From assembly GCA_030693145.1 (NCBI GenBank), contig JAUYBI010000071.1, positions 10,354 through 74,353 of the forward strand: 64,000 nucleotides of DNA. Reading direction: 5' to 3'. Every line of letters begins with the position of its first letter. Position 1 is the stretch's first letter. Of this stretch, positions 2,565 to 41,600 are shown one piece after another. A program made the translations under genes and the position numbers. Below the pieces are notes generated by a model. The model was not told where the DNA came from and ran no database searches. It saw only the letters and a program-made list of their open reading frames with translations. This DNA comes from Candidatus Omnitrophota bacterium (GTDB lineage Bacteria > Omnitrophota > Gorgyraeia > Gygaellales > Profunditerraquicolaceae).

Positions 2565-2565
2565 A

Positions 2566-3681: not shown

Positions 3682-3691
3682 TAAAATAATT

Positions 3692-5084: not shown

Positions 5085-5317
5085 AAGCCCAGGTCGCGCT
5101 TGAATTTACCACTGCTTTCATTTGCCTGATCCTTTTTTTGGTGGCGACCACGCAAATATTTGTCTGGTTCGGGAATAATATTGTGCAACGGCATAAACAG
5201 TATGAAAGTACGCGCACGACCGTAGCGGCTGATGGCACCACCGCGCCTCCGAAGATAGATTTTTATACGCCTAAGAATTTAAACATATTCGGGAAACCGG
5301 AAGAGCTGCCGAAATAA
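5066..5317 (+). CDS. TadE-like pseudopilin, small (83 aa)
   Basis: Protein MENYQVKAQVALEFTTAFICLILFLVATTQIFVWFGNN... has the TadE-like N-terminal pattern. ORF track 5066-5317. Confidence 0.5.
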   Translation: MENYQVKAQVALEFTTAFICLILFLVATTQIFVWFGNNIVQRHKQYESTRTTVAADGTTAPPKIDFYTPKNLNIFGKPEELPK

Positions 5318-5322
5318 ATAAA

Positions 5323-5529
5323 ATGAGAAAAAAAGGGATGAGCGTGGTAGAATATAGTTTACTGATTGCGATTGTAATCGCCGGGCTTTTGGCAATGCAA
5401 GTTTATGTTAAACGGGCTGTAAGCGGCCGCTGGAAGGAAGCCGGAGATGTGTTTGGTTTTGGCAGGCAAACGTCCAGGACCCTTCTAAAACCGCAGCCAC
5501 CAGGCGGCGGCGGATTACCGGGAATGTAA
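5323..5529 (+). CDS. Flp-family prepilin (paralog, 68 aa)
   Basis: Protein MRKKGMSVVEYSLLIAIVIAGLLAMQVYVKRAVSGR... ORF track 5323-5529. Confidence 0.65.
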   Translation: MRKKGMSVVEYSLLIAIVIAGLLAMQVYVKRAVSGRWKEAGDVFGFGRQTSRTLLKPQPPGGGGLPGM

Positions 5530-5531
5530 AA

Positions 5532-6377
5532 ATGAGACTACTAATTATTTTGCTTATTTTTGGATCAATCGCTGGTTTGGCGTATGAATTGATTCCTCTA
5601 CTTTTAGGCCGCTATTCCCAGCTGCAGGGCAAGCGTATGGAAAATGCCTCCAAGGAATTGCATAAGATGTTTATTTATACTGAAAAGCGCCGTTTACTAT
5701 CTGTGTTTACGATTACGCCTTTGGTGCTGGGCACGCTGGGATTTATGATCTTAAATAATCCATTTGGTGTTTTAGTGGGCGTAGGCCTGGGTTTGTTATT
5801 GCCCCGGATATGGATTAAAAATATGGGCCGAAAAAGGCTGAATAATTTCGCCAAGCAGTTGGTAGATGCGCTGATGCTTCTTTCCAGCTCGCTTAAGGCG
5901 GGGATGAGTTTACCCCAGGCATTTGAGGTGCTTACCGAAGAAATGCCCGCGCCAATTAGCGATGAGTTTGCCCTGGTGATCAAAGAAAATAAAATGGGCG
6001 TAAGCTTAGAAGATTGCCTGGCGCATCTTAAGCAAAGAATACCTTTAGATGATTTGGAATTATTGACTACCGCTATCAGCATCTCCCGGGAAACCGGAGG
6101 TGACTTGACTGAAATTTTCGGGAATTTAGTGCATACCATTAGGGAAAAAAGAAAATTAGATGACCGTGTAAGGATACTCACTGTGCAGGGGCGGCTGCAG
6201 GGGGCGATTATGGGCCTTTTGCCGATTGCCTTTGGGGTTTTTATGTATTTCACTAACCCGGGCAATTTTGACATCATGCTTAAAGATAAAACCGGCCAGA
6301 TGCTGCTTGCCTGGGCGGTGATTTCCGAAATAATCGGGATAATTTTAATCCGGAAATTAAGCCGGGTGGAGATATAA
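5532..6377 (+). CDS. tadB: Tad pilus assembly inner-membrane platform protein, T2SS-F domain (TadB-like)
   Basis: Protein with an N-terminal TM, the T2SSF-type region LLSSSLKAGMSLPQAFEVLTEEMPAPISDEF...RETGGDLTEIF, and C-terminal TMs. ORF track 5532-6377. Confidence 0.7.
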   Translation: MRLLIILLIFGSIAGLAYELIPLLLGRYSQLQGKRMENASKELHKMFIYTEKRRLLSVFTITPLVLGTLGFMILNNPFGVLVGVGLGLLLPRIWIKNMGRKRLNNFAKQLVDALMLLSSSLKAGMSLPQAFEVLTEEMPAPISDEFALVIKENKMGVSLEDCLAHLKQRIPLDDLELLTTAISISRETGGDLTEIFGNLVHTIREKRKLDDRVRILTVQGRLQGAIMGLLPIAFGVFMYFTNPGNFDIMLKDKTGQMLLAWAVISEIIGIILIRKLSRVEI

Positions 6378-6379
6378 AT

Positions 6380-7261
6380 ATGGAACTCGCGCTGATTATT
6401 TTTTTGTTGTTTATCAGTATTGGATTTGCGGCCTATCATATTTCTAACCGTAAGCTGGTGGAAGAGGTGCATCTGCCTTCTGAGATTACCGGCCCGTCGG
6501 CCTCCGGGCTAAAAGCATTTAATTTTAAAAATATTTTAAGCGGGCCGGTCAGTTTTATCGAGCGCCTGTTCGGCAAATCTATGCTCTCTTTCACTTCGAG
6601 CGATTTGCATAAACGCTTAGCTTCCTCAAATAATAAAATGAGCGCCAGCCAGTTTATGATATTAAAATTGTTTATGGCCGGGGCAGTGCCGCTGGGTGCT
6701 TTTATTGCTGTTCACGCAGAACTCCTGATACTGATTATTTGCGCCGGCGTTGGTTTTATTTCACCGGACATCTGGCTGAATAACTTGATTAAGAAAAGGC
6801 GCGCCCTGATTGTGAAAGACCTGCCTTTGGTAATTGACCTTTTGAATATCTGCGTAGGGGCAGGCCTGGATTTTATGGTGGCGGTTAACCGGGTAATTCA
6901 GGAATTCAGGCCCTGCGCGCTGATTGAGGAAATGAAGATAATGGCCCACGAAATACAAATGGGCAGTGCCCGGCGTGATGCGTTAAAGAATATGTCCAAT
7001 CGCATCAATAATCCTGAGATCAGCTCGTTTGTGAGGACGCTTTTACAGGCAGACAGGATCGGCTCGCCTATTAGCGAGGCATTAAAGATGCAGTCAGAGG
7101 AAATCCGCCTGCGCTGGTTCCAAAGAGGCGAAGAGATGGCCTTAAAAGCTCCGATTAAGCTGTTATTTCCCCTGTTGGTATTTATCCTTCCAGTAGTTTT
7201 AATCATTGTTGCCGGCCCTATTTTGCTACAGTTTACCCAGGGCGGAATGATGAAATTCTAA
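6380..7261 (+). CDS. tadC: Tad pilus assembly inner-membrane platform protein, T2SS-F domain (TadC-like)
   Basis: Second T2SSF-domain protein immediately downstream. Region LPLVIDLLNICVGAGLDFMVAVNRV...ADRIGSPISEAL with terminal TMs. ORF track 6380-7261. Confidence 0.7.
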   Translation: MELALIIFLLFISIGFAAYHISNRKLVEEVHLPSEITGPSASGLKAFNFKNILSGPVSFIERLFGKSMLSFTSSDLHKRLASSNNKMSASQFMILKLFMAGAVPLGAFIAVHAELLILIICAGVGFISPDIWLNNLIKKRRALIVKDLPLVIDLLNICVGAGLDFMVAVNRVIQEFRPCALIEEMKIMAHEIQMGSARRDALKNMSNRINNPEISSFVRTLLQADRIGSPISEALKMQSEEIRLRWFQRGEEMALKAPIKLLFPLLVFILPVVLIIVAGPILLQFTQGGMMKF

Positions 7262-7321
7262 GCTAAATAGACTTTTTTAAATACACCTTTAAATTTTACT
7301 TGACTTTTTTAAATATCTACG

Positions 7322-7372
7322 AATACGACCCTGTTTCCCAGCCAATCGGGAAATAGGGTCGTATTTTTGTCG
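7322..7372 (+). terminator. intrinsic-terminator-like hairpin (repeat family D) after tadC
   Basis: aatacgaccctgtttccc-agccaatc-gggaaatagggtcgtatt forms an 18-bp stem, followed by TTTTTG. Half-copies occur at 811-830 and 8021-8047. Confidence 0.5.
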
Positions 7373-7456
7373 GTGCCCCTATTAAAATTGTCCAGTCTGT
7401 TTTTTAGTTAGATTTAATTGATTATTACGTCAATTATATTAGAAAGGAGAGCTTAA

Positions 7457-7969
7457 ATGAACGCAAAAGAGATTTCGGCAGAAGTAGTGGCAATGAAGAT
7501 TTTGTTGGTGAGGGGCAGAAAGGTGATGTTGGATAGGGATTTGGCAGAGATGTATGGTGTAAAGACTAAAGTTCTTTTGCAAAGTGTAAAGCGAAATGCA
7601 AAAAGGTTCCCGGAAGATTTTATGTATCAGCTTATAAAACAAGAGGTTGCCATCTTGAGGTCACAAAATGTGACCTCAAGATGGGGTGGTAGAAGATATT
7701 TACCGTATGTATTTACTGAGCAAGGCGTAGCAATGCTTTCTACAGTTTTGAATTCTGAACGCGCAATCCAGGTTAATATCGCTATTATGCGGGCATTCGT
7801 AAAGCTGCGCGAAGTCTTGTTAACGCATAAGGACTTAGCGCAGAAACTTGAGGAATTGGAACGGAAATACCAATTGCATGAGACAGATATCCAGGCAATA
7901 TTCGAGGCGATTAAGAGATTAATTGAACCGCCGGATGAGCCTCCCAAGCCACGGTTTGGGATGAATTGA
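7457..7969 (+). CDS. ORF6N-domain protein (KilA-N/ORF6N superfamily, phage/mobile-element-associated regulator-like)
   Basis: Protein MLDRDLAEMYGVKTKVLLQSVKRNAKRFPEDFMYQL...SRWGGRRYLPYVFTEQGVAMLSTVLNSERAIQVNIAIMRAFVKLR matches the ORF6N signature. SD AGGAGAG upstream. Confidence 0.65.
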   Translation: MNAKEISAEVVAMKILLVRGRKVMLDRDLAEMYGVKTKVLLQSVKRNAKRFPEDFMYQLIKQEVAILRSQNVTSRWGGRRYLPYVFTEQGVAMLSTVLNSERAIQVNIAIMRAFVKLREVLLTHKDLAQKLEELERKYQLHETDIQAIFEAIKRLIEPPDEPPKPRFGMN

Positions 7970-8042
7970 GATTGCCTACGGCCCCATTTTCCTATCAGGC
8001 TTGAAACAGTTTCTTAGCCAATCGGGAAATAGGGTCGTATTT

Positions 8043-8105
8043 TTTTGTCCAGTCTGTGAAATAAATTCTAATTATTGTCCATTCTAATTTGATATTTGTC
8101 CAATC
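8043..8105. repeat. three spaced copies of TTGTCCA(G/T/A)TC
   Basis: ttgtccagtctg ... ttgtccattctaa ... ttgtccaatcaga, read directly. Same motif as the 640-690 array. Confidence 0.4.
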
Positions 8106-8134
8106 AGATTTGTTTAAGCTGCCTAATGGCAGGT

Positions 8135-8170
8135 AATCTCTTAAAATGGCCATTTTGTCATTCTGAGGGA
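8135..8170. repeat. interspersed repeat family C (gtcattctgagggagcagggcgaccgaagaatag)
   Basis: Variant of the element at 9010-9075 (gtcattgcgaggagcggagcgacgaagcaatc). In coding context that element yields the familiar ...SLRGAERRSNL... peptide. Confidence 0.4.
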
Positions 8171-8188
8171 GCAGGGCGACCGAAGAAT

Positions 8189-8216
8189 AGTAGGGGAGGT
8201 TTAAACCTCCCCTACT
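8189..8216. repeat. family A palindrome AGTAGGGGAGGTTTAAACCTCCCCTACT
   Basis: Perfect 28-nt palindrome. Stem bases differ from the 744-771 copy by compensatory changes (GTGG/CCAC to GGAG/CTCC). Confidence 0.55.
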
Positions 8217-8225
8217 GAAAATAAT

Positions 8226-8273
8226 GGGACCGTTTCTATTTTTCGAAAAGTATCGAAAAATAGAAACGGTCCC
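8226..8273. repeat. family B hairpin element, perfect 21-bp inverted repeat (gggaccgtttctatttttcga / tcgaaaaatagaaacggtccc)
   Basis: Read directly. Related copies at 697-720 (half), 9566-9618 and 24954-25003. Confidence 0.55.
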
Positions 8274-8358
8274 TGATTTGCCCTGATTCGTTATTTTAAG
8301 GGTTTTTTGGGGGTAGGCTACAGAAAGAAAGCGCTACCAAAATTAGTGCAATTTCTAC

Positions 8359-8388
8359 TTGACAGCGTCTATCCGGGGTGTTATATTT
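8359..8388 (+). promoter_or_regulatory. candidate sigma70-type promoter (TTGACA - 16/18 nt - TTATAT/TATATT) upstream of the giant gene
   Basis: ttgacagcgtctatccggggtgttatatt read directly, about 280 nt upstream of ATG 8669. A weak hairpin plus T-run at 8505-8529 lies in the leader. Confidence 0.35.
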
Positions 8389-8668
8389 GAGTGTAAATAG
8401 AAAAGGTGCAAAAGGTAAACTTAGAGTAATCTAAGGACACAAAGCCACGGATCCTAAAATCAAGAAATAGTGTCAAGGACAGCCGGGTTGCCAGTACCGA
8501 CGAAAGTTGGAGCTGACAACTCATTTTTTATTTAAGAACTTAATAAAAAATTTTAAAAACGTTTTAGTAATCTGTAACCTTATGCAAAGAAGCTTCATTA
8601 AAAAAATGAAAAGTCTTGGGGTAAGGGGAAGTATTTATTTTTTATTTAATACTACAGGTAAGTAAAAA

Positions 8669-11600
8669 ATGAATATAAATCAGCAGCAGACAGAAAACAG
8701 TATTAAGCAACCCAAAGAAGAATTCAAGTCAAGTTTTAAGACTTGGATTCGCGCGGTTGCTTTTATTGTTATTGCGGTATTCCTACCAGAACAGGCAGCC
8801 CAGGCAATGGGCTATGACCCCACCACAATCTGGAATCACTCTTATTTCGTTAACCAGGGCAAAAACGGATTTTTAACTTATCTTGTAGCGGATAATGTCC
8901 AACGCTCCTTGAATTCACTTGCCTATAAACAATTAAATCAGGTTCAACTGGATAAAGATTTAGTAATTGAAACAATGTCCATTCATAACCCTGATGCCAT
9001 TGGAAGTGGACAGGGTGCTCCTGTGTCATCGCAAGGAACTTCCCCTGTGTCATTGCGAGGAGCGGAGCGACGAAGCAATCTTTATGATAAAATCAGCAAT
9101 ATCCTGCAAAGTGTCAGTGCGGGAATTCTTAATTTTGCGGTCAACGGCCTGAATAAAATCTCCTCACCTGGCGCTTATAGCCAGGGATTAATAGATTTCT
9201 TAAGTAGGGCAGGTTTAAACCTGCCCTACTCTGACTCAAACCAAGGAACCGCCTCCAGCCAAAAACCACCGCTCTATATTACCGGTTCAGTGGCAAAACA
9301 AATTAACCTGTGGCTTAAGGATCCCAAGACGCAGGTTGATAACAACTGTGGCATCAACGCGCTGAATGCATTATTTGTCCAATCTGGTATTAAAGTAACT
9401 CGTGAGGAATTGGCAACCCGGGCGATTATGGTTGATTTCCTCTCAGGCAATTTGAGGGAATTAAAAGGTGAACTCGCCTTATCCCTTTTTGCCCTGAATA
9501 AAACCGCCATCTCCTTTGGCCTTAAGACCGCTTTAGTCAAAATTCCCGCTTCGGCATTGAATCAAGGGGACGGTTCTGTTTTTCTAACACCAAACTCAGG
9601 AAAAACAGAACCGTCCCCTTTATTTCCATTCATTACCTATCTTTTATCCGAGCACTTTGTCTTAATAACCCGCATAACTGAAGACAAGGTTTATTACCAA
9701 GAAGACAAAGAAGAAGCCAATATGTCCAAAGAGATCTTCCTCAAAGGCTTTACCGGCAATTGCTTGATTCTTGCCTCATCCCTTTCCTCTCAAAATAGTA
9801 GGGGAGGTTTAAACCTCCCCTACAGTTCAGCGGAGGATTTAGTGGAGAATGGGATTGTCCCTCTTTCCGACCAAGAGGCATTACAAATCAGCGGAAAGGA
9901 AAACAATGATAGCCGCCTGCGTTCTTTAAAAACCGCGGTGGGTTTGGCAGTGGGATTGGTTACCAAGAATCCGGCGCTTGGGTCTACGTTAGCGAATACC
10001 AATTGGACGAGCACAGTATCATCTATTCGATCTACTGTGTCTAATGCCCGCAACATCTACAATTCCGCAGTGAATGTCCAGAACACAGTTAAACGAGCAA
10101 CCGGCTTATCCATAGGAAGCTTCACTTCTCCCTTGAGCAATATTAATATCCAGAGCATTAAATCCACTGCCGGCATAGCCACTGCCGTGCTTACCCGTAA
10201 TCCCCGGGCAGGAATGGCAGTAACTAATAGTAATTGGACCAAGACAATATCTAACGGCCTCTCCGGAATAAAAAATACTCTTTCTGAAAAAGCAACCTGG
10301 GCAATAGACCAGACCACCTTTAGTTCTAAACTGCGTAATGAAAAATACTGGAGCGCGAATAAAATAGCGGATGCTAAAGTGTTCCATTATCAATTTTATG
10401 ATGCGCAAAAGCAAACAGCAATGTTTGGAGGGAATGTCTATACCAAACAGCAATGGGATGCTAAATGGAATGAGAAGGCATCGTTTTTCAGTTCATCCAC
10501 TTTAACCCGTGGACAGGAGAATGACCAAGCGTTCAATGCCCTGGTAATCGCCAATCCCAATGGTGTGATTAGCGGGACAATTACCGGCGTCTTAGGTTAC
10601 GCGGGAACAGCCATAAAGTATTCGCGTTCTTTACCAGCAATTTCTCAATATCTACCAACCGGAGTTAAGGGCTTGATTAGCAACCCAACCGCGAGTGTTG
10701 GACTTAGCCGCGCGGGAGGGATAGCTAATTCTATCGGCTCAAAGGGTTATAATTTTGCCAAATGGACACTACAGATGGAGCGGGGCGGTGGAAGCTTAGC
10801 TAAAAATATTTGGCTGACATCATTAAAATATACCACAATAACCGGGCCTATCTATATTGGTATTCCTACGCAGGGCATCTCTTCTGTTTTATACGCTAAT
10901 GGTTATAACAAAGCCGGAGATATAGTATCTGGCCCAAACAGATTTGCAGAAAGGACAATAATTTCTGGCCATGATGTAGTGGGCGGTATCTTAGGTTGGT
11001 CGAATAGAAACATATTCCGCACCAGTATTGGAGATAATCTCTGGAATGAGCAGTATGGCAAACTCGGAAAACTGACTACTGCTTGGAATAAATTTGATAA
11101 AAATAATGAAATTTATTGGAGAGGAACTGTGGGAGACAAGAATTATGAATACCTTGTTAAACCCGTTACTCAAACCGCAGCTATAGCAATAGGAACTTTA
11201 GGAGCAGGCGCATTATACGGAGGTTCTGCTACGGTTCTTTCTCTAAGTTCAAATGCCTTGAGATGGCTTCCTATAGCTGTACCCGCTAATATAGGGCTAA
11301 ATACTGCATCTAAATATTCGTCAACAGGACAAGCTCCAACAATTCATGAAGGAGCCTCTTGGGGCATAGAAGGTGTAGGCGATGCATTTGTATTTGGCAC
11401 ATTACAGAGAGCATATACAGGAAGCAAAATAGCAGTTAATGCTTATCGGCTGGATAGAGTAATCTCTAAGCAGAAGTATTATACACCTATATACACGAGC
11501 TTCACAAATGGAAGAATAGTAACCGCCATAGATTTAGGTAAATTCGGATATAAAGACATCGCTAAGCTCTATCTGTTTAAAGCCGGCCAGTGGCTGCCAA

Positions 11601-23600: not shown

Positions 23601-26600
23601 CGTTTACAGGAATTCCGGCAGGCGGCAGCTTTGGAGATGCTGAATTTGAGAAGTATTTTAACAGAAAATCCGAACAATTAAGCCGTCTTTATATAGAATC
23701 AAATAATCCGGCCAAGCTTGGCGCACGCCTAGTGCGCGGCCAGTCTGCGCAGCTTGCAAATGCCCATCAAACCGACGGCGGCGCAAGAGAGCCTTTAGCA
23801 GGATTGGTAGAGGTTTTGAGAGTAAAAGATTTATTGGCTACAATTAAAGCCCGCGCGCAGAATGGAAAGAATCTTAATGGGCGTGTTTATGTTGGCGGTG
23901 TTTGTCGAGATAATATAGAACAAAGGCCACTACCGAAATTAAGATTACTGTTAAAGCAGCTAACAAAGTTCCTGACATTTTATCAATCTCCTTCCTTATC
24001 AGAATCTGGACGAATAAGCAAGCCCATTATTAACGAACCTAATAAACCTATAACAATTAAAACTTTAATTAGAATTGTAAGCTTAATAAAATCCGCTGCT
24101 ACTAATGCAGCAAGCAGAACTTTGGAAAAATCAAGTAAAGTTTGGGAAAGGGCTTTAAGTTTACTTTTAGAAAGAAACATCATCACAATCTTTCTATCAT
24201 ATATTAATAATTCTGTCAATACTATAAATTTTGGCACTAAAAAGAGACAGGGCCAGGAAACGGTTAAATACCAAGCCTGCGACGGCGGCGCATTTAGCAG
24301 GATGGGTTCATTCCCTGTAGGTTTACCATTTACAAGGTCCACAACGCTTCCCGTAGAACTACCTATTTCTTTACCGGTTTCTCAGGATGGTGGGAATAAT
24401 GTTAATTTAACTAAATTGGCAGCACAGGCATTCAGTTTAGATCATCGCGGTTTCATTGTTTCTGTAAGAAGAGTCTTAGGCGGTATTTCCAAATCTGAAG
24501 TAAAAGATGCTCAATCGCTACCGATAGCCCAGACAAACATTAAGAAGTCAATTTTCTCATTAGCTCCTCCGGTTAATGGCTTGATTTCGCGTTTGGTAAG
24601 CGTAATTAACCAATTAGCCACGGGAGGACAAAATGATAAGCATAGACAGAATTCAGGAGATGAGAGAGCAGATGGCAGAGCTGGAAAATCAGTACCGAAT
24701 CCGAAGATTGCAGGAATTCAGGACGGCGGCAGCAGTGGAAATGTTGAATTTAAGGAGTATTTTAACAGAAAACCCGAACAATTAACCAGCCGTCTTTATA
24801 TAGAATTAAAAAATCTAGCTAATCTTGACGCATACTCTGGGCTTAGTCCGCCTGCGCAGCTTGTAATTGCCTTAATAGCTGCAGTGGTATTTGGCCTTTC
24901 CGCTTTAACCCATCAAACCGTAATAAATTCCATATATTCCACTTTAAAATCCAGGGGACGGTTCTGTTTTTTACCATTAAGTTCAGAAAACAGAACCGTC
25001 CCCGTGTTTTTGATATTAACTTTAACCACTACTTCACAAAAAGGAGGTGAATCATGTCACCCATTAAGCTCGAAGGCATCAGGATCCACCACATCATTGA
25101 CTCCACAAAAGATTATTCAACTTTTGCTGCAGCTCGTGAACACGGTAGTAACAAGATTAGGATCTTCCTGGTTAAAGATTCAGGCTCTGTCTATGCGCAT
25201 ACTGGACAGGAAGACACATGGAAGGAGATTGTCGGATCGGTCGCCGCCTACATCAGGTATTCCATCAGCCAAGCCCGACAATATGTTCCCGTCTACAAAG
25301 TCAATACAGCCTACGCTACAAACTAAAGCCGGTTTCTACGCTGCAACAAAGAATATTGTGATTTCTATTATCGCGTTGTTCTTTGTTGCGGCGCAGCCGG
25401 CAGCTGCGGCGGAAGGCTCGAAATTATCAGAGATGGTTCTTTTTGGAGGGGCTATATTTTTAATAGCAGCAATAATATTCGGTTTATTCCTCGCGTTTTC
25501 GATAAAGATGGGTATTCAAAAAGCAGAAAAAGCTATTGAAGAATATGGGAATAATACCCGGAGGATCGAAGATAGTGTTATAGCTAACCAAGTGATTGAA
25601 GCTTCAGCGATACATATAGAATCTACAGCAACGTTAAAATCTCCTCCGAATGCGTTATGGGTTTTAGAAAAGCTAACTTATCTTGGATCCGGAATTATTA
25701 CTCTATATTTTCCGATCTTTGGATTCATTAGGTTATCCTCTTGGATGATTGGTATCGGATATGTTTTCCTTATAGTGGGCGGTATAATAATTATACATCA
25801 TCTTGGTATGATGAAGAATAAAGCTAAAGGCATGAAAGTAGCGGGAGAAAGAACTCCTGCACAGATAGTTACAAATAATGGCCTTTATAGATGGATTCGC
25901 CATCCGCTTTATTTAGGGCAAATGATATCAGTAATTGGGTTTGTTTTAGCCTACACTAATTTATTTGCTTTACCTTTAAATATAATTTGGTTCTATTTAG
26001 TGAATAAATTGGCTTCTGCGGAAGAGGATTATTTGGTTAGCGTGGCTCCTGGTTATGCGGGTTATAAGCAACGGACAGGTAAATATATATATATACCAGG
26101 GTTTTTAGCAAAAAATAACGATAGTGAAAAAGAAGCAGTAAATAGTGATAATCTGTTTGATGGAGGGACTCTTATCGCTTTGGAAGCGGTATTAAGCGTT
26201 ATAATAATAGATCAACTTCTAAAATATATTGCCACCAAACGTTTACTTCCGCATTCTGAATATATTGATAAGGGTTTGAACTCTGATGGTTCATATCGCA
26301 GTAGAGGAACGACCGAAATTTATTATAATGAAGAGGCAAAAATTAAACTAATTGGACGGCTTGCACTTGTTAATGTAAGGCATAGTTCTGGCTCAAAAAC
26401 AGATAATATCGCCGTTGTTAAAATTGGTATTCTTGCTTCTTTGTTTGTGTTGTACGGCGCCTATTTTTCTGGTAACACTGCCTTGACTGTAATTTTTGTT
26501 TTAGCTGCTGGGGGATTCTTCGCTACCATCGTTGATATAATTAAATCAAAGTTTAGAGGAGCAATAGATCCGTTTATGTATGGAGGTACCTTTAATAATG

Positions 26601-29600
26601 AGCGGAGATTCGTTTTCTTCAATTTCGCAGATATATGTGTACTTACAGGATTGTTTCGCGCAGATTCCGGGGACGCATTACTTAATTTAAAAGTTGGCTC
26701 ACGGCGCGACGGCGGCAGGGTTCAGGGGGTGTTTGCGGTTTTAGGTGTTGGCGCATTAGGTGTGTTTTTCTTAATTTCCAGCTTGAAAGATTTAATTCTG
26801 ACAGTTTCTGGCGTAAACGGCATTAGCTTGGTATGGGTGGCATTAAAGCTGTTAATGGGCAGCAGCCTTATTTTCTCCAGCTATTCGTTAAATTATCTTA
26901 GGTTAGAGGCGGCAAAAGTAAATGGGCTTGTAACAAAGGGGCCATACAGTTTCTCAAGAACTCCTGTTTACTTGGGGTATATTTTAGCCGGTACTGGTTT
27001 TGCGTTTAGTTTAATTCTCTCCGGGGAGTTATATTCAGTATATTTTGCGGCTAATTCCGCGGCTATAATATATTTATATTTGGGAGTTTATAATGAAGAG
27101 AAAACGCTCGCGAAACAATTTGGAGAAGAGTATAGAAATTATCAAAATTCCGTTCCGAGATGGTTTGCGTTTAAGTTATTTTGGAAGGTGATAGTAAAAA
27201 AAGCTGATATTGACAGCCACCGGTTAACACAAAAAGACGGCGGCGCAGGGGCGTCGATAATTGAAAAGTTGTTAAATGCAATTAAACCCCGCGCGGAGAA
27301 TCTTTATTTGATTGCTTCGAGGTGGGATAATCTTAAATCTATTTCTTCTACTTTCCGCTCTACTTTTATCAATCTTAAATCTATTTCTTCTACTTTCCGC
27401 TCTACTTTTATCAAGCGTAAACCTATTTCAGCAACTTTCTCCCACGTTCTGGCTATGGTAGTTTCAATTCCGTCAATTCTTCTATTAATTGATTTTAGCT
27501 CTTCGCCAAATACCCTAAACTGGCTTCTTAGATCTTCAATGAGCACCGCCACTTCTCCCGCGGTCATTGTGGTTTTATTTTTAGCATTCTTATCCATAGC
27601 AGTAATTATAAGCGACAGAGTGAATTCTGTCAAGAATAATAATTTTACCCTTGAAATTAAGCGCTCTTATGCGATTAATCCAGCCCGCGACGGCGGCACA
27701 GGGACGATGTTACAGAATAAAATTGCAGCTACAAATATGGAACCAGAGGTTAAGCTTATGTTAACACGCAGGGGTTTCTTGGAAATTGGCGCTGGTATTG
27801 TTGGCTTGGGATTAAATCCGGGAATAGGGGGCATTAAAGAATTAGCAAATAAGTTTGCTGGTTTATTGAAAGGCGAAGAAATAGTTGATTTAAATAATCT
27901 TTCTGTTGACAGAGAGGCGTTAAAGCAACACGTAACAAAATTGGCTAATATCGGTACAAGAGCAGCCTATTTTAGAAATACAACTAATATTAACAAGGCT
28001 AAAGATTATATTGTTGGTTGTTTAGAGAAACTGGGATTACAAAGAATACATAATCCAATAGGGAAAGGATATATTTTACAGCAGTTTACAATGCAAGAGA
28101 TTTATGTTTATCCTAGAGACGATTATCCTTATTTAGACTATGAGTTAAAGTCATTAAGAAATCAAGAAAACATATCGTCTGAACAAACATCAGATCAATT
28201 GCTTTCCGTAAAGATAATGTCGTCACTGAAAACATTGCTATCGTTTTTACAAATCCGAAAAGAGGATAAATCACTTTTTGAGCTAAATATGACCATGCTG
28301 AAAGAGGCTGGTATCAAAGTTCCTGGACCATATGGTCCGGTAAAAGTACTTAAGAATGATTTAATCGTTGAGGGCACAAATATTATTGTTAGAATACCCG
28401 GAAGTAAGAATCCTGATAAGAAAGTTATTCTGGGTGCTCATTATGATTGTTTCAAAGGTGTTGGCGCTAATGATAATGCAACCGGGGTTGCTTGTCTTTT
28501 GGAGGCAGCAAGGATTATTTCGAAGTTTAATTTTGACGATACAATAGAGATTATTTTCTTTACCGCAGAAGAGGACGATAGTTTAGGGAGCAGTTTTTAT
28601 TTAAAAGAATTATTTGAAGAAGAAAAGGCCAATATAAAAGGGGTATTTATTGTTGATATGATTGGTAATAATAAAGGAAAAGATGAGCCTGAAGGGGAGG
28701 AAGATCTTAATTTACTGTATGATAGATATAATCCGGAAATATCTAAAAAGCTAATTGAAGAGACTGTAGAAGCTATACAGAAACACGTTTCGGATTTTTC
28801 AGTAACGGCTAATGAAGATGAGGGTTATGATAGTGACGATGACCCATTCCAAAGTGAAAGAATACCTACGATATTGTTTAGCGAAGATACCGGTGAAGAG
28901 CTTACAACTCAGAATGAGTTTTTTAACGGGGCGCAAGACACAATAGAGCATATAGATTTTGAAGGGTTTTTCCCCAAAGCAGTAAAAGCGGTTATAGTTT
29001 CCGTTATCGTACAAAGTAACTCTAATAAAGACGGCGGCGTAATTGGTTCTGCTATTATATTACTGGTTCCTGGCATTTGGAACTCAATGTATATGCAGTT
29101 GATAGGGGTGAATAGGCCTGGCATAGACCGCATCCTGTATGAAACCGGCCCGCCGGAAATTAAGATTGGAGTTATCAAATATTTATTTAATAGATTTAGC
29201 CCTGGCTCAACCAGTGTTTCTCAGCCTACCGTGGCAGGTATTTCCTTTAAAGCCCGCGCGGAGAATCTTTATTTGATTGCTTCGAGGTGGGTTAGCCGTT
29301 TACTGAAATCTTCTTTGATAATTCGTACGTCTTCTTCTATCTTAGCAAGTTTACCGTTCATTCTGGTTAAATCGTCTTTTATCCCCGCTGTCCTTATATT
29401 TAGCGTAGTAATATCTTCCCTGCTCTTTGCCACCATACCCATTGTGCTGTCTAATTTGTCTCTAAGCGCATCTTGGCCTTCACCGAGAAGCTCAATCCCT
29501 GAATGGACCTTTTCGAGGATTACCGCAAATTCCCGATCTTTATCAAATTCTTTGAGTTTCTTTGTCTCTTTCTTCATGCTAAGCAATTCCGGGAACACAT

Positions 29601-32600
29601 TACTTAATTCCCAGCGCGGCGGCGGCGCAGTTTTTATTCTTTTCGGTGTTTATGATGCGTTAGACGGTCAATACAAAACCAAACACCAAAAATCAGCACA
29701 ATTAATAATAGGGTTACTACCGCAGTCATTTCTATTATTTAGTATGATGAGAGTGAAGATGGCGGGGAATCGTGAAAATCCCGATAAGAATAATAAAAAT
29801 CAAACCACCAATCAACATAAACAGCAAACCGTTCATAATTATTCAACTCCTTTATTAAGCATAGTGGCAATGATAAAGGCTGCCATAAAAAACATCAAAC
29901 CTACCATAAATACACTAAGACGAAATTCAATTCCTGAGACGAATTGTCCGATTACTAACGCCGCAAATACTAATTTACCTATATCGTACAAAGATTTAGA
30001 CAATTCCTTTCAATTCTTTCTTATAAAAGATTCTGGGATAAGCAGATCTATTAACAAAGCCAAGAAAGATTCAATGGCGGATAGGGTGATGTTTGCGGGG
30101 GGTAGTAAAGAAGATACCCAAAAGCGCAATAATTATTATTATCAGGAACGTGAAAATCAAGATCATTTATCCTCCGAATTTTTCAATAGCGTTAGAGCCC
30201 AAAACACCAATATCACAGTAACACCCATCCCTAATATGATAGTTAATAATTTAATAAAGAGTTTTTCCCCTGAGAATATGGGATTTAGTATTACAACAGC
30301 AATTAGTAATTTACTTACATCAAATAGAGTTTTTGCTAATTCTTTGGATTGGTTCTCATTTAGCCGCATAGTTAAATATATACTACTAGAAGAGATTGTT
30401 GTCAAGCCAAATTATTTTATAGTAGCAAACGATGGATCTGCGACCGACGGCGGCATACTTAGTTCTGCTATTGTATTAGCGGCTCCGGGTGTTTGGAACT
30501 CAATTTATATGCATTCGATAGAAGGGATCAGGACTGGCGTAGACCTTTTATTATATGAAACCAGTCCGCCGTATACTGTTATTCTTCCTGATGTTTTCCT
30601 CCCAATAGTTTTCGTCTTATTATTATCCGTAATAACAAATTCTAAACTAAATTCAGCAAGATTTAGCCCTGGCTCAACCAGTGTTTCTCAGCCTACCGTG
30701 GCAGGTTGGTTTGTGTTGGCCGGGGCTATTTTATTTGTTACCCAGCCGCTGCTTACCTTAGGGATACTTACCGTGGCAGGTATCTCCTTAATTGGTGCGG
30801 CTATTGTTGTATATGGGGGCTTCGCAGGCATTATTCCTGCCGGGGCCCCCATTGCAACAAGAAAGGGCAGCGTTCCCGCGGTTGCGGATGGGGGAAGAAA
30901 AGTAAATATTGATAAAGTTACGATGACAGGCGATTGGCGGAGCTCAATAGCTAGAGTAGAAGAAATACTTAAATTGGTGGAAGATGCTTGTTATCGCGTA
31001 ATTATGGTAAAACAAGGGAAAGTCGATGCTGATACGATAATAAAGATAAGAGAGAATTACAAGGGAAGAAAACGGGATACAGCTATAGATATGAAGCTGG
31101 GTAAGATAATAATAAATGATAATAGAGAAACATTGCGTATATATAATATTCTGAGTAAACAGCAAAAATTTGTGGATATTTTTAATATTTCTATTAAAGA
31201 AGATGTCCGCGGAGCGGCAGCTCAAACATTTGGAAACCTGGCAAAGGAATTAAATATTCCACTTGAAAAGATCTCAGAAGGGTTGATGGAAAAAGGTGTA
31301 AAATCAGGAGAGTTTGAAACAGCCTTTGTTTTGTTAGAAGAGGCAAAAGACAAAATATTTATCGCGGTACAGGAGATATTAAATATCGATATCAATGAAG
31401 AAGGAGTATATAGCATTGGAAATGAAGGTGATTTTATAGATGCCCAAGGCAGACGCATAGATTTATCTGACTATAAAGTTGTAAGCCATATTCATTATCA
31501 TCCCGGAAGAAAAGACGGATATCCTGTTCCGTCAGCGTTTGATTTGGGTTTATATACGCAGCTATTGTTTAGTAATAATGAATTTATAGGCATTGTTTTT
31601 GGCAACGATACTCAAGATAAGCTTATATCCAAGGCGTTTGTCTTAAAAGACGGCAGAGACCTGGGAAAGTTAAAGCTCGACATAGAGAATTTGCTAGAGG
31701 AGAGGCAACTCTTGGAAGAAAAAGGCGTAACGGAAGCTAACCGTAAAATATTTATTGGTATGTTTGAAATTTTTATCAATGAATATTTCCGCATAATTCA
31801 AACCGAAGATTTTAAGATAAACGAAAATTGCGGAAAAGAAGCCGACGGTGGAGAAATAATAGACCCAGGCACTTATGAAACGGCTCGGAAGATAAACTGG
31901 AATGAATGGTTTTTAAAATATGACGCGGTATTTTTCCTTAATATAGTGACGTTGTTTACCCCTAGGGATGCTAAGGCAATAAGCAAGACTATAGAAAAAC
32001 TTAAGGAATTAAGAAAAATTAATCCCGGTAAGTTTAAAACAGCGTTAGAAGAAAACAAAGATTATATAAGGGGTAAGATTCTTAACAATATGAGGAGTGT
32101 TGCCAAACAGGTAACACATACAGAAGAATGGCTTTTTGGTGACGTGGACGCATTATCATACGATAAATTGGATATGTTAATGGAAGTCTTTCCAGAAGCA
32201 TTTATAGAAGCAACAGAAGAAAGAACCAATAGCGAATTAGTTGGAAACTTTAAACTTGCGACTAAAGGTAAAGAGCTTATGCATAAGGCAACAAATTCTA
32301 TGGGGCAAAGACTATTGGAGCAAGAAAATAAAAATGTAAGATATTTATTGGCTACCTTATTCACAGAGGGCATGGATAAAAAAGAAGAGCTAGATAACAT
32401 TAGAGAAACAATAGCCGCTCTTAGTAGAGCGGATATAGAGGACAATATTTTTGTCTACTTATCTTTATTAATAAATACAAATGTAAATAAAGAGTTAGCC
32501 CCGAAGGTCGCCAGAGCAATAGAAGGTTTCTTAGCCGAGAGGGGGATAAAAGGTAATATTAATCCGGATAGTTTAGTAGCAGAATATAGCAAAATAATAG

Positions 32601-35600
32601 AAAATGGCCGAAGGATAAAGCATATCGCCATTAATTTAGAAGCTGTATTTGGGAAGGATGTTTTAATAATATGGGATAGTTTATATAATTCTTTACAGGG
32701 CAAGAGGCAGTTTCAGATAAGCCGGATAGTGGAAAGTATCAAATCGGGTGTGGGGAGCCTGAGCAAGAAAGGCGCGGTGAATGTTCTGGTTGCTTCCGGT
32801 GATATGTTAGGAGAACAAGGCCACAAACAGATTATCGAACCATTTAACAGGGCATATAATAGCGGCATAGATCTGGATAGTAGAATAAAAGAAGATTTTG
32901 GAGTAACGGAAATAAAAGGTGACAAGGTTATTATAATCCGCGCTGAAGAGAAGAATGTGTTGAATGGGGCGCCCGCCGTAGTGAATATAATAACAGACGG
33001 AGAAATGCCTGTTGGGATTATAGACGCGGTAGTAACCGGCCTGTACGAGCAAGGGGAAAAGAGTTTTATCAAAGGGTTTATGAATCTGTATGAAAACGGA
33101 GCAGAATTAGTATTGGGTTACAAAGTACTTGATATAAATGGCGTAAGGGTAAAATTGAAATACGATAACGAAGAGAAAAAAGAATACCCCGTAATTTACA
33201 TTACTATAAGTATGTACGACGTCGCTAAGATGTTAGAAACAATAGCCGGAAAAAACTGCGCTTTGGACGGCGGTAAGGATTCGCAAGATACGGGTTATCT
33301 ATTGAGTAAAAATGAGGTTCGCGCGGCTACTTTGGCTGGGGTGGGGTTAGTTGTTTTATCCTTTATTCTTTCAGCGTATGGTTTTGAAGATTTAGCAATT
33401 GCCAGCGGAGCGATTGGGTTTATGTTAACTGCTGTCGTAGCGATAACCTGGTTAGCCATTAAAATTAATCCTCAGATTAAAGAGGTTTATTTAGAGGCGC
33501 TGGAAAACGCTAATGAGCCGGTGGCCATATCAACCGTTTCCGGGGAGGAAGAAATTTCTAATACAGTTTTACCAATGGAAACAGAAATGAGAATAGAAGG
33601 GGATATTATTCATCACAATTTCTCTCCCAGCCGGATCGGTGAAAATAAAGCAAACGGGTTAATCACTAAAACAGTTGCAGCAATTGATAAGGTTAACAGC
33701 GCCGCAGGCGTTAATTCTGCATATATGAGCCGCTTAGATATGTTAGCCGGATTATGCCTTTCTAACGGAATTATCGGAGTTTGGTATTTTATTAAATATT
33801 GGAATGCGTATGGAATGGACCCGACCAAGACCTGCGAACAGTTGCTTTTGGGTAAGCAGGTATATGGTTATCCTCACCCGCGGCAAGTCGATATCTGGCT
33901 GGCTTGGAAAGATAACGCGCCCCTGGGTTATGCCGTAGCGTTAGGGCCAGATAAATACCGCCATATAGCTTATGTAGCGGTTGTTCCTGCAATGAGAAAG
34001 CAGGGAGTTGGGCTTAATTTAATGAAAGAGTTTTTTGAATATGCCAGGAGCCAGGGAATCGCAGAGTCATCTTTACATGTTAACGCAGATAATCTAGGGG
34101 CCTTGGGATTATATAGGAAAGCAGGTAGGTTTGCGGATAAAGTAGTAGAAATGGTAAAGGAAACCCCGTCCGGCATTGCTCAAATAAGAATGGAATTTTC
34201 TATTAATCGCGGGAAGGGAGACAACAAGCAGGCTGACGGCGGTTTGCTTAGGGCTGGGCCGGTGTTTAGTGAACGTGCTTGTGGCGATATTGATCGATCC
34301 CCAGCCAAACTAGGATTACGAGAATTATGGCGCTTAGGGTTAAAAGGGCGGTCATATCAATCTTCCTCCAAATTTCCTTTTGGGCAGACAAAAATTGCTC
34401 CTACCACTGAAAGAATCGTTGTTAATATAAAAGCAGTTTTCCACGGCATCGCTGCTTTAAGGAAGGCTTCTGAAATAAATAAAGCAATTACTAATGCCTG
34501 GAATAAATTTATTAAAGCTTTTGCAATTAACCGTCTGCGCGAATCTGTCCAAAATACATCTTCTTTCATTGAAAAAATACTACCATATCTTATTAGAGTT
34601 GTCAATAGCAATAACTTTAGAGATTCTTCGTCGCTGACGCTCTTCAGAATGACGAGGAGAGTAATTGAATTTGACGGCGGCAGAACGATAGTAGATTTTC
34701 TAAAGAAAGTTCCGTTAAAAGTTTGGCTTTTGATTCTCGCGGCTGTTTCACTTTTATTATTCAACGTACCTACGGTAACCGGTGCTTTGGCTGTTCCGGT
34801 TCTGGTGGTGGTGGGGATAACAATTTCCGGGACAACAATCGCGATTTTGGTACTTATAGTAATTATAGGAGTGTTGGCTGTTAAGAAATCTTGGCCTGTC
34901 ATAGCTCACCTTGCGGGTTTTGCTGGGGTATTGTTTGGCGTTTCGAAGTTACCGTTAATATACGCAGCAGCAAGTAATTTTGGTATGTTAGGCGCGTTAG
35001 GGTCATTTGTTGTTTCTACAGGAATAATCGTTGGCGCGATGTTCTTCTTCTTCGCGCTTATTGTAGATTATAAGAAATACGGGAAAGCAGAATTACATTA
35101 TACAGGTAAAGGCATTACTTCTTCCTTAGAAGACTATCAGATGCTTGCTTTGCAGGATATCGCGAAAGAGTATTCAAAAGAGTACTCAAAAAATAGTTTC
35201 AGCACAAAGAAGCTTTATTCGTTATATAAAAATAATCCCCGTTATCTAATAGCTGCGTTTGCGGCTGGTTTTATTATCGCGGCTGGTTTTATATTATTTA
35301 TTCCTACAGTTTTTATTGCAGCTACTATCTTAGAATCGTTGGCGTTAGGCGTATTGTTCCCTTATCTTGCGCATGTATTTCTGGATTTCTTTGGTAAATA
35401 TTCATTCGAGAATTTACATAATGTTGAAAATTTACAAAAGATTAAAGATTCTAAGGAGTTTGAAGAACGAGCTAAAAAATATAAAGGCGAGCTTGAGCGG
35501 GTGCGCAATCCCGAGACAAGGGAAAAAGAAGGAACTACGGATTATAGTGTGTTTATCTACGAATCAAGGATTATTCGCGCTAAGTTAGCCTTTCGCTTCC

Positions 35601-38600: not shown

Positions 38601-41600
38601 GAACGAACGTTACTTTTACTTTTGGGAAGTCTGATAATAATAGAAACGTTACCTTAGAATTTTATGCGCTGAATATGTCAGACGACAGGCAAATCCGTCT
38701 GAGCTCTCCAATAGTGATACCTGATGTAGATTCAGACCCATCGCCATATACTATCCCTGCCATTAGTAATTATTTCCAGAATGGTGGTGGAGATGTTACT
38801 ATCAGGTTAAATCAACTGCTGCCTATTAATATTACAGGCATGGGGATGAATGTTTCCTCTTTAAATAACACCGCTGTAAGTAATTTCTGGACGCTGAATT
38901 TAACCGATGTATATAATGACAGCACAAACAACATTACTCTCAAGCTGGGTGAGAATCCGCAGGTAGCAGGAAGAGAGATAACCTTTGCCTTAACTGGATT
39001 CGATAATATAGGAAAGAAAACTGCGGATAGCGGCGCAGTGCATTTTGATATGATTAATCCTAAGGTAAATATTAGCTTACCGGCAATAACTGGAACTGAT
39101 AAGAGCCAGATAGATTTGGGAGTAGGCCAGAACGCTACGATCAACTTTACCATTACCAACCCGGGAAATTACGCCTCAGTAAGTGATTTGCTTGCCCAGA
39201 ATAATACCTTAGCCTGGGAAAGCCTCACCGGCGCAAACCAGAGCCTGGCTCAGGAAATTGTCAGAACCGGAACCGCCACCATCTGGTATCAAGCAAATAA
39301 AACCGGGAGTACCGAGCATTATACTAACCTGACCTTTAGCGGCATAGATAGCTCAAACTCCATAGCTTTTACGCCAGGGTTTAATGTTACTTATGCTGTG
39401 TATTCAGATGAGGGTTTAACCCGGTTCAGCAGCTTTAATGAGCCAACAACATTCAATATTGCTCTTGGCGGCAACCACACTGTAACCGGCAGCGTGGTTA
39501 ACTTAGCCAATCTCTCGAAAGTCAACGCAATCGACGCTGACCTGTATTATCTGAATAACACCTTAAAACAAGAGAATGCCAGGATCTTCAATACCACTCA
39601 AGCCCAGGCAGGGTTGAATAACGGCCAGTTAACCTTTAGCTATGACGCCAATAACTCCGGCAGCGGCCTGATCTTCGCTAACCTGCGTTCAGTAGATGCC
39701 AACAACACCCGTTCCCCAGTCAGCGCCAACAACTTAACCATCACCTATCCGGAAAGTATTGACCCCGGTTTAACCCGCTTTAGCAGCTTTAACGCCCCGA
39801 CTACTTTTAGCATTAACCTCGGCGCTAACCACACGGTTACCGGCACCGTGGTTAACCCCGCGAATATCTCCAGAGTCCAGGGCATTGACGCGGACTTATA
39901 TTACTTAAACAATACCTTAAAACAGGAAAATGCCCGCATCTTTAACGCCACGCAAGCCCAGGCGGGTTTAGCCTCAAGCAGCCTGACCTTTAGCTATGAT
40001 GCCAACAACAGCGGTCTGATCTTTGCTAACCTGCGTTCTGTCGACGCCAACAACACCCGCTCGCCAGTCAGCGCGAACAACTTAACCATTACTTATCTGG
40101 AAAGTATCGACCCCGGTTTAACCCGCTTCGCCAGCTTTAACGCCCCCACGGCTTTTAGCATTAACCTCGGCGCCAACCACACGGTTACCGGCACAGTAGT
40201 CAACCCTGCGAATATCTCTAAAGTCAACGGCATCGACGCGGACTTATATTATTTAAACAATACCTTAAAACAGGAAAACGCCAGAATCTTTAACGCTACG
40301 CAAGCCCAGGCTGGTTTAGCCGCTAGCAGGCTGACCTTTAGCTATGACGCCAATAACTCCGGCAGCGGTTTGATCTTTGCCAACCTGCGTTCTGTCGACG
40401 CCAACAACACCCGCTCCCCAGTCAGCGCCAACAACTTAACCATCACCTATCCGGAAAGTACTGACCCCGGTTTAACCCGCTTTAGCAGCTTTAACGCCCC
40501 GACTACTTTTAGCATTAACCTCGGCGCTAACCACACGGTCATTGGCACCGTAGCCAACCCCGCGAATATCTCTAAAGTTAACGGCATTGACGCGGACTTA
40601 TATTATTTAAACAATACCTTAAAACAGGAAAACGCCCGCATCTTTAACGCCAGCCAGGCCCAGGCCGGTTTAGCCTCAAGCCGCCTGACCTTTAGCTATG
40701 ATGCCAACAACAGCGGTCTGATCTTCGCCAACCTGCGTTCAGTAGATGCCAACAACACCCGCTCCCCAGTCAGCGCCAACAACTTAACCATCACCTATCC
40801 GGCTACCAATGTTTCAGATACACTCTCTGATACCGTCCTTATGCCTAATATTACTCCTCCTAGCAGTATTACTACTTATGACGGCACTTGGAGATTTAAT
40901 TTCAGTTCTCCGGTGAATGTCTCCGGCACCAAAGAGATTCGTTTTGAAAATGTCACGGTTAACGGCACAGCTGAACCTTATATTTGGATGATGGCCAATG
41001 ATTCAGCAAATGTCAGCCTTATGCTTGGCAAAGGCACAGGCGAATACATTAATGGTACGCTGAACAAAACCTTATACAATAACAAAATCATCCGCGGCCA
41101 ATTCAGGTTTGTGGATCTTAGCGGCCGGTTCACCAATTTAAGCGAATTAGTAGAGATTATCGACCCGGATCCGGTTAATATTACTATTGAGACAAACAGT
41201 TCAACTCAGGTAGCGAATACATCAGCCGCCTCTAACATAACAGAAACAAGCAATAGCTCAATTACCGTTACTACTGCGATGGGTATAGAACAGATGACTA
41301 CAAATACTACTGGCATTATTAAAAGCACAATTATAGATGCTAAGGGCGCGGTTAAAGCAAGTATTGAGAATAATTTAGATGAAGAGACAACTATGGTGCG
41401 TGATAGTAATGGAGTTCTTTTGTATATCGGCGGCGGCTTTGGCGCGCGCACCGTAGCGGCAATCGATAGCGAAAATTCAACCGCTTATTTAACGCGGAAG
41501 GATTTAGTGCGTAATGTTATGTATTTTGAGAAATTTTCTATTGATAAAAACGGAAAGCTTGCTTCTATTCCTGAAGCGAAGATTAATCTTGATGGCACTC

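Follow-up and report, generated by a model that had tools for sequence, protein, structure and literature searches.

Asp-Gly-Gly junctions between enzyme modules of a giant Omnitrophota open reading frame are candidate processing sites

How are four enzyme modules that lie one behind another in a single bacterial reading frame turned into functional products? This question is raised by a 64,000-nucleotide stretch of DNA (hereafter the window) from a Candidatus Omnitrophota bacterium (assembly GCA_030693145.1, contig JAUYBI010000071.1, positions 10,354 to 74,353). An earlier note on this DNA had recognized an ICMT-like, an LspA-like, a second ICMT-like and an M28 peptidase module, and had proposed that their product was either cut after translation or kept as an uncut megaprotein. 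We found that the four modules do follow one another in one frame, with no stop codon and with family matches (25331-29038), and that they are separated by repeated sites, GATGGAGGG or GACGGCGGC, all of which encode Asp-Gly-Gly (DGG). They are not a stand-alone fusion of 1,233 amino acids (aa) but part of an open reading frame (ORF) that extends from 8669 to beyond 64000. Nor are the second ICMT-like module and the M28 module adjacent; they are separated by 148 aa that are likewise bounded by DGG (27245-27688). The earlier note had also overlooked how large the ORF is, as well as a C39 domain and an antisense gene. Cutting of the chain is favored by the evidence below but is not proven. The ORF, the modules and their junctions are as follows.

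8669 to 64000, + strand: giant ORF, starting at ATG 8669, with no stop inside the window, 18,445 codons or more, running off the window
25331 to 26158, + strand: ICMT/PEMT-like methyltransferase module 1 (WIRHPLYLG at 25892-25918; EE at 26021-26026)
26159 to 26167, + strand: Asp-Gly-Gly junction GATGGAGGG, between ICMT-like module 1 and the LspA-like module
26168 to 26707, + strand: LspA-like module, resembling signal peptidase II (candidate catalytic Asp residues: 26534-26536 and 26630-26632)
26708 to 26716, + strand: Asp-Gly-Gly junction GACGGCGGC, exact 9-mer
26717 to 27235, + strand: ICMT/PEMT-like methyltransferase module 2 (SRTPVYLG at 26951-26977; EE at 27095-27100)
27236 to 27244, + strand: Asp-Gly-Gly junction GACGGCGGC, exact 9-mer
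27245 to 27688, + strand: DGG-bounded 148-aa segment between ICMT-like module 2 and the M28 module, sense translation not protein-like
27689 to 27697, + strand: Asp-Gly-Gly junction GACGGCGGC, exact 9-mer
27698 to 29029, + strand: M28 metallopeptidase module (Tat-like LTRRGFLEIG at 27761-27790)
29030 to 29038, + strand: Asp-Gly-Gly junction GACGGCGGC, exact 9-mer

By sequence comparison, the M28 assignment is unambiguous and the other three modules are distant superfamily members. The M28 module matched its Pfam family with 101.8 bits (E = 5.1e-29; cut-off, 21.3) and aminopeptidases in PDB with E values down to 1e-14. The catalytic motifs quoted in the earlier note were present in all four modules. 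In the M28 module these are GAHYD, GANDN, TAEE and VDMIG, and the metal ligands are H 28439, D 28472, EE 28568 and D 28655. An Asn (28925-28927) stands in place of the fifth metal-ligand His, as in most close relatives, fused or free-standing; the subfamily alignment (A1) reads FFNG or YFNT at this ligand versus LLHT, and metal binding in the subfamily may be different.

Support from family models for the other modules was uneven. The first ICMT-like module (PEMT, 25.4 versus a cut-off of 25; ICMT, 24.4 versus 24) and the LspA-like module (Peptidase_A8, 26.2 versus 25; E = 1e-5) scored just above the Pfam cut-offs, and the second ICMT-like module scored below (PEMT, 22.3 versus 25). Both ICMT-like modules matched Tribolium ICMT (PDB 5VG9; E = 2.3e-5 and 1.4e-4, respectively). 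The best NCBIfam matches of the first were LmtA and ICMT, under cut-off; the second matched MddA (E = 3.2e-9) and ICMT (E = 8.4e-8), both far under the equivalog cut-offs, and the LspA-like module scored 20.8 with lspA (TIGR00077), for which the equivalog cut-off is 73.95. Because the methyltransferase and LspA-like scores are far under these cut-offs, the substrates and functions of the modules are not fixed by family, and the label of protein-maturation enzymes used earlier is not established.

The first methyltransferase module carries WIRHPLYLG followed by EE, and in the second the corresponding motif is RTPVY, in which Thr replaces the His of RHPxY. The LspA-like module contains GGFFATIVD (GG-x6-D) and FFNFAD (FNxAD), spaced as in E. 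coli LspA (BLASTP E = 0.21). An NxGxAF-type motif was unrecognizable in this module, and hydropathy gave three strong segments and one weak segment. Sequence search of PDB and a word-indexed homologue search returned nothing for the LspA-like module, and the latter search also returned nothing for the four-module region. A single-sequence AlphaFold model of the LspA-like module was unusable, with a predicted local distance difference test score (pLDDT) of 39.

The stop-codon map showed that the giant frame was free of stops from 8666 to 64000, that is, over 55,334 nucleotides (nt), and that the remaining five frames had a stop each 10-30 codons. Further, when 920 windows of 180 nt were scored by codon-usage log-odds trained on well-supported genes, 881 favored the giant frame. 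The four-module region (25331-29038) makes up about 7% of the ORF, and 25330-29030 has no entry of its own in the mechanical ORF list. DGG occurred 22 times in the window ORF versus 4.8 expected (Poisson p = 1e-8); in aa 2290-8680 there were 21 versus 1.9 expected (p = 1.5e-15).

15566 to 58651, + strand: span of all 22 in-frame DGG
DGG starts 1 to 11: 15566, 19211, 20195, 20765, 23072, 23567, 23774, 24281, 24386, 24722, 26159
DGG starts 12 to 22: 26708, 27236, 27689, 29030, 30446, 30887, 31844, 33266, 34235, 34673, 58643

The exact 9-mer GACGGCGGC was present 10 times in the window versus 0.22 expected, a number reached by no shuffle, and all copies were on the sense strand and in frame. As a separate observation, an identical 9-mer forms each of six consecutive junctions (26708 to 30446), in a repeat-rich stretch. 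The two segments after the M28 module (29030-31900) look like a diverged tandem duplication, with 78% identity between 29030-29155 and 30446-30571 and a 48-nt stretch that occurs at both 29192 and 30659 with 100% identity. This part has been rearranged recently, and it is here that the exact 9-mer junctions are concentrated. Hydrophobic N-termini directly after DGG were weakly enriched in the window (5 of 22; p = 0.03) but not enriched in the other two DGG-rich proteins described below, and we dropped them as a general argument.

The same junctions were found outside the window. An exhaustive HMMER search of 1.84 billion representatives detected the M28 module in several long proteins; P0010, P0152, P0011 and P0002 are partial proteins labeled by NCBI as Candidatus Omnitrophota bacterium. 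DGG was the most enriched tripeptide in P0010 (10 versus 0.5 expected) and in P0011 (26 versus 1.5), an excess of 17-18 fold, and the segments that it delimits in these two proteins are about 130-520 aa long. The contig that encodes P0010 (L082; GCA_022013145.1, JAKLQW010000034.1, 1-15175) is open in one frame over all 15 kb, and in P0152 and in the L082 frame DGG occurred 19 times versus 1.1 expected. No Pfam domain straddled a DGG in the window or in L082. The M28 module has the layout DGG, TRRxFL, DGG in the window and in P0010 and P0011, with different neighboring modules, and the giant ORFs share no module besides M28. In the window, LTRRGFLEIGAGIVGLGL starts 20 residues past the DGG, and TRRKFLE is conserved in P0010 and P0011. 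The earlier note described the module as bearing a twin-arginine translocation (Tat) signal; the Tat-like LTRRGFLEIG motif is present, and a search with a Tat-signal hidden Markov model gave no match.

In contrast to these fused modules, the closest M28 relatives (P0001 and P0003, at 40-47% identity) stand alone as genes of about 400 aa, each with its own start and stop and lacking DGG. Together with P0005 (loci L083-L085), they are 33-44% identical to the window module in the subfamily alignment and 38-47% in HMMER. They share with it the Asn for the fifth ligand His, except P0005, which keeps His; they differ in having their own start and stop, DGG at neither end and no TRRxFL. Scans of genome contigs gave no relative in a first round and were swamped by generic M28 genes in a second; scans of metagenome contigs likewise gave no relative or generic M28 genes, and none of these metagenome loci held a giant ORF or DGG enrichment. 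Note that, in the database, P0010 begins at an ATG internal to the L082 frame, and that the annotated genes of L082 include a DUF433 gene on the opposite strand (3815-4057). Gene callers truncate and fragment these giants.

Only D-G-G was invariant across 66 sites. The P4 residue was often Lys and was acidic in 0 of 66, and the residues upstream of the sites were polar and linker-like. The codons were also biased. Asp was GAC in 15 of 22 sites of the window (background 0.23; p = 9e-6) and in 16 of 19 of L082 (background 0.165; p = 2e-10), and the first Gly was GGC in 15 of 22 and 15 of 19, respectively. This bias leaves room for an additional role at the level of DNA or RNA.

Accordingly, the junction could lie in the nucleic acid itself, with GACGGCGG acting as a joint for in-frame insertion or shuffling of cassettes, or as a site of RNA processing or pausing, and DGG being secondary. 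The strong codon preference in two genomes fits such a signal, as do the six consecutive identical 9-mers amid repeats (26708-30446), the module content that is wholly different between giant ORFs except for M28, and cassettes that hold genes in both orientations. However, we found no extended nucleotide motif around GACGGCGGC and no inverted repeat flanking the core, and 8-9 bases are very short for a recombination site. Further, DGG is kept when the bases vary, as the in-frame single-base variants of GACGGCGGC in L082 comprise 12 synonymous and 0 non-synonymous changes, and all copies are in frame on the sense strand. We regard a purely nucleic-acid junction as improbable; it is compatible with proteolysis, and the two can coexist.

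Separation during translation, by ribosome skipping of the 2A type at DGG or by internal initiation at each cassette on one long mRNA, appears far less credible. In its favor, GGCGG and GGAGG look like Shine-Dalgarno sequences, and the motif before the M28 module is followed 10 nt later by an ATG. However, a start codon is absent near most junctions, no DGG motif is known to cause ribosome skipping, and internal initiation leaves selection for a stop-free frame unexplained.

By analogy with C39 peptidases, whose domains cut after Gly-Gly, we consider it somewhat probable that the product is a polyprotein and that it is cut after DGG. Such a domain lies near the start of the same ORF.

8753 to 8806, + strand: N-terminal hydrophobic signal or anchor AVAFIVIAVFLPEQAAQA in the translation (aa 29-46), after a basic n-region
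9332 to 9784, + strand: C39-like cysteine peptidase domain (Pfam PF03412; E = 4e-6, 27.1 bits versus a cut-off of 22)

By inspection, the domain keeps Cys227 (in QVDNNCGINAL; 9347-9349) and His329 (in SEHFVL; 9653-9655); the Pfam alignment begins downstream of the Cys. A single-sequence AlphaFold model of the C39 region was unusable (pLDDT 38), a PDB sequence search with the N-terminal 600 aa gave no match, and a word-indexed homologue search with the C39 region gave one 160-aa fragment only. The hydrophobic stretch at the N-terminus is followed by an AQA motif and looks like a signal peptide. Because this signal-like N-terminus precedes it, the C39-like domain is predicted to lie outside the cytoplasm. 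As a side observation, a perfect hairpin resembling repetitive extragenic palindromes (REP), GTAGGG(G/C/T)(A/G)GGTTTAAACC..CCCTAC, recurs at 741-808 and 8186-8215 (intergenic) and at 9200-9229 and 9794-9823 (in the ORF). Its stem has an energy of roughly -22 to -24 kcal/mol (z between about -5 and -7) and shows compensatory changes between copies; the two in-frame copies, which read S-R-(A/G)-G-L-N-L-P-Y-S, flank the C39-like domain as if it were a mobile cassette.

We infer both the cleavage and the enzyme that would perform it. In the mechanism that we propose, the four modules would be cassettes in the enzyme-rich part (aa ~2300-8700) of a giant gene of the Omnitrophota type, transcribed from the promoter-like site at about 8359 under a cyclic di-GMP (c-di-GMP) riboswitch and translated from ATG 8669 as a single chain. 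A Gly-Gly-specific cysteine protease, either the N-terminal C39-like domain acting in cis or a second protease, would then cut the chain after each Asp-Gly-Gly. The cassettes (ICMT-like, LspA-like, ICMT-like, M28, GNAT and others) would become separate proteins and be inserted into the membrane or exported individually, and segments that bear antisense genes, with a meaningless sense translation, would be excised as junk peptides.

Several observations count for cutting. DGG is enriched, and occurs only between domains, both here and in two further fragments of Omnitrophota giant proteins; a C39-like peptidase with its Cys and His stands at the start of the same ORF; TRRxFL follows right after DGG at the start of the M28 module in both lineages; the nearest M28 relatives are free-standing genes; the amino acids of DGG are constrained, as the synonymous variants in L082 indicate; and no stop interrupts the giant frame where it crosses five antisense ORFs.

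Other observations weigh against this reading. The C39-like domain is predicted to be extracytoplasmic, whereas the junctions around the ICMT-like and LspA-like modules and the Tat-like motif should be cytoplasmic; because it is thus predicted on the other side of the membrane, the cis C39-like domain is a poor fit for these sites. DGG sites do not have the amphipathic leader helix of classical C39 substrates, and the fused chain is topologically self-consistent, so that cutting is not forced. Codon choice at DGG is biased beyond the need of the amino acids, and the protease model does not account for the GAC/GGC bias. The DGG pattern was seen in two independent lineages only, and P0002 (MBN3039876.1), which has the closest fused M28 module, is not enriched in DGG. 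In aa 1736-4712 of P0002 the top tripeptide is DQG (6 versus 0.9 expected; weak statistics), and DQG-I-DQG stands just before M28; DQG may be a lineage variant of the junction.

Does the membrane topology decide between a cut and an uncut chain? The check proposed earlier was made manually, from hydropathy and family topology. The first ICMT-like module would end in the cytoplasm, the LspA-like module would have four helices with both ends inside, and the second ICMT-like module an even number of helices, which places every junction between them in the cytoplasm. The test does not discriminate, because an uncut chain would also be self-consistent. An intact megaprotein that threads the membrane dozens of times, with DGG as a flexible interdomain hinge, agrees with this topology. 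Further, published surveys treat giants as single polytopic chains of tens to hundreds of helices, and peptides of a 39,678-aa ORF are reported to have been detected in Velamenicoccus archaeovorus (PMC10066038). However, a hinge needs no invariant three-residue motif whose variants are all synonymous, and nonsense segments that bear antisense genes would remain in the protein permanently. A Tat-type N-terminal motif is hard to use within a chain of 18,000 aa, and the orthologous M28 enzyme appears, from its gene, to work as a free-standing protein. We therefore regard the uncut megaprotein as unlikely, although it keeps a real chance.

The 148-aa segment before the M28 module raises a further question, namely what a segment with no protein-like sense translation encodes. 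Codon log-odds favored the minus strand at 27326-27626, and the sense frame of 27245-27688 gave no family match. The following minus-strand features were found in this and other DGG-bounded segments.

27304 to 27633, - strand: antisense transcription unit with an ORF of 109 aa from TTG 27633 and a stop at 27304-27306
23986 to 24180, 30166 to 30369 and 34360 to 34569, - strand: three related ORFs of about 65-70 aa, inside DGG-bounded segments

The antisense promoter, TTGACA-17-TATAAT at 27633-27605, matches the consensus at 12 of 12 positions and is followed 8 nt beyond by an ATG; this ATG (27597; 97 aa) is a more likely start than TTG 27633. A terminator-like hairpin lies downstream of the ORF (27218-27202), and the whole unit spans 27192-27633 on the minus strand. 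The ORF encodes a coiled-coil protein that matched phrog_1863 (E = 5.7e-6); an exact-sequence look-up of this protein gave no record, and tblastn against phages found nothing. It has a paralogue at 29269-29598 (-), with which it aligns in the minus frame (87 aa, 28% identical; E = 4e-10); translated in the giant frame, these two stretches, 27304-27633 and 29269-29598, have only seven residues in common and do not align. The products of the three related ORFs are small membrane proteins that have two helices and an acidic tail; one of them weakly matched DUF6722 (E = 5e-4). In L082, the minus-strand DUF433 gene likewise lies inside a DGG-bounded nonsense segment.

When the sequences of the antisense proteins and the local codon usage are taken into account, the joint chance that the giant frame would be open across the five antisense ORFs of the window is about 4e-5. 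Therefore, read-through of the whole ORF appears to be under selection.

Several segments without a sense coding signal, which carry antisense genes, and the many segments without a family match would also be found if the giant frame were not expressed as such, being a decaying or accidental open frame over former genes. We consider this highly improbable, since 55 kb without a stop is impossible by chance, the codon signal of the sense frame extends over nearly all of the ORF, and the catalytic motifs are intact. The start has a riboswitch and a promoter-like site upstream of it, the same architecture occurs in other Omnitrophota, and peptides from such an ORF are known from the literature (PMC10066038).

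Which known systems resemble this ORF? Published Omnitrophota giants have C39 domains near N-terminal signal peptides, many helices, methyltransferases and peptidases, and secretion or pilus genes as neighbors (10.1101/2023.11.21.568195; PMC10066038), and a published 147-kAA giant contains signal-peptidase-II and HEAT domains. The window ORF resembles the multi-enzyme giants of the 'Archaeovorin' type (West-Roberts et al., 2023, 10.1101/2023.11.21.568195; Seymour et al., 2023, PMC10066038; Nielsen and Lui, 2026, 10.64898/2026.06.07.730766) in that it runs for tens of kilobases without a stop, has a C39 domain close to an N-terminal signal sequence, encodes numerous hydrophobic helices and adjoins pilus or secretion genes. 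The two also share methyltransferase, peptidase, GNAT, HEAT and signal-peptidase-II content, and the closest fused homologues are proteins of Omnitrophota metagenome-assembled genomes. In contrast, the giant-gene literature that we searched gives no junction motif, antisense genes or riboswitch. The window ORF is a giant multi-enzyme gene of the Omnitrophota type; the DGG junction as a candidate cleavage or cassette rule and the nested antisense genes do not appear in the literature that we searched. West-Roberts et al. (2023; 10.1101/2023.11.21.568195) noted C39 domains at the N-termini of giant proteins and suspected cleavage, but cleavage points were lacking, which blocked structure prediction for each product. 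DGG is the first concrete candidate for where giant proteins are cut.

Cleavage after Gly-Gly is known from other settings. The C39 domains of ATP-binding cassette (ABC) exporters of bacteriocins and competence peptides (ComA, LagD, CvaB and PCAT1) share with the window the papain-like Cys and His of PF03412 and the candidate cut after Gly-Gly. Their substrates have short amphipathic-helix leaders that are cut once, in the cytoplasm, during export, whereas the window ORF has at least 20 internal sites in which only D-G-G is fixed, no fused ABC transporter and a C39-like domain that is predicted outside the cytoplasm. Coronavirus PLpro (LXGG) and the precursors of polyubiquitin and ubiquitin-like proteins offer an analogy only, in that units joined in one chain are released by a cysteine protease at a short motif ending in Gly-Gly; these systems are viral or eukaryotic and bear no sequence relationship to the window ORF. 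The literature that we searched describes no counterpart, that is, no cellular bacterial polyprotein of this size with membrane-enzyme cargo.

Pfam searches located the following domains in the ORF.

aa 262 to 370 of the giant ORF, + strand: C39 domain
~25757 to 26035, + strand: PEMT/ICMT match 1
~26190 to 26655, + strand: Peptidase_A8 match
~26910 to 27130, + strand: PEMT/ICMT match 2
~28380 to 28960, + strand: Peptidase_M28 match
~33890 to 34130, + strand: GNAT domain
~58900 to 59900, + strand: HEAT repeats
~61900 to 62600, + strand: cytidylate kinase

Pfam detected no SecA-like domain in the ORF as far as the window covers it, and the ORF continues past 64000. Kyte-Doolittle analysis (window 19, score of at least 1.8), a crude method, gave 38 hydropathy peaks in the visible part, some of them within antisense-gene segments. 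We found no tRNA genes and no further Rfam families inside the ORF, and a ribozyme or tRNA-like processing signal at the junctions is thus unsupported. The stretch 34682-58642 (+), of about 8,000 aa, has zero DGG and a signal-anchor-like start, RTIVDFLKKVPLKVWLLILAAVSLLLF. It contains tandem repeats, with a period of 354 nt at 39278-40800 and further repeats at 57279-58537, and a Lys/Gln/Glu-rich repeat of 48-51 nt at 51782-52071; it is probably a structural part of the product.

Upstream of the ORF, the following features were found.

952 to 5529, + strand: at least six Flp-type pilin-like genes, with a G-Q-S-x-x-E-Y processing motif
5532 to 7261: two T2SSF (TadB/TadC-type) genes, after the pilin-like genes
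7457 to 7969: ORF6N gene, after the T2SSF genes
8359 to 8387, + strand: promoter-like TTGACA-17 nt-TATATT upstream of the riboswitch, found by eye
8405 to 8496, + strand: c-di-GMP-I (GGC variant) riboswitch aptamer, full-length (Rfam RF03167; 61.1 bits versus a gathering score of 59; E = 5.7e-12)

The riboswitch lies in the leader of the giant ORF, 170 nt upstream of its ATG, and genes of a Tad/Flp pilus adjoin; this suggests that the giant gene is under c-di-GMP control.

Returning to cleavage at DGG, we tentatively extend it, with a confidence that stops short of even, to a broader proposal: some giant genes of Omnitrophota may be cellular polyproteins of interchangeable cassettes, in which DGG (GACGGCGG) would be the processing site, would also bracket promoter-driven antisense genes, and the frame would be kept free of stops for read-through. 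If this is true, a bacterial gene of tens of kilobases would act as an operon without stop codons and with nested antisense genes, and DGG would supply the rule, so far missing, by which giants are divided into their actual products. DGG sites that flank antisense-gene segments would let the meaningless translation of these segments be discarded, and published helix counts and domain catalogues of giants may include segments that are antisense genes. Whether the giant proteins of Omnitrophota act whole or cut is an explicit question, and the DGG junction makes it testable.

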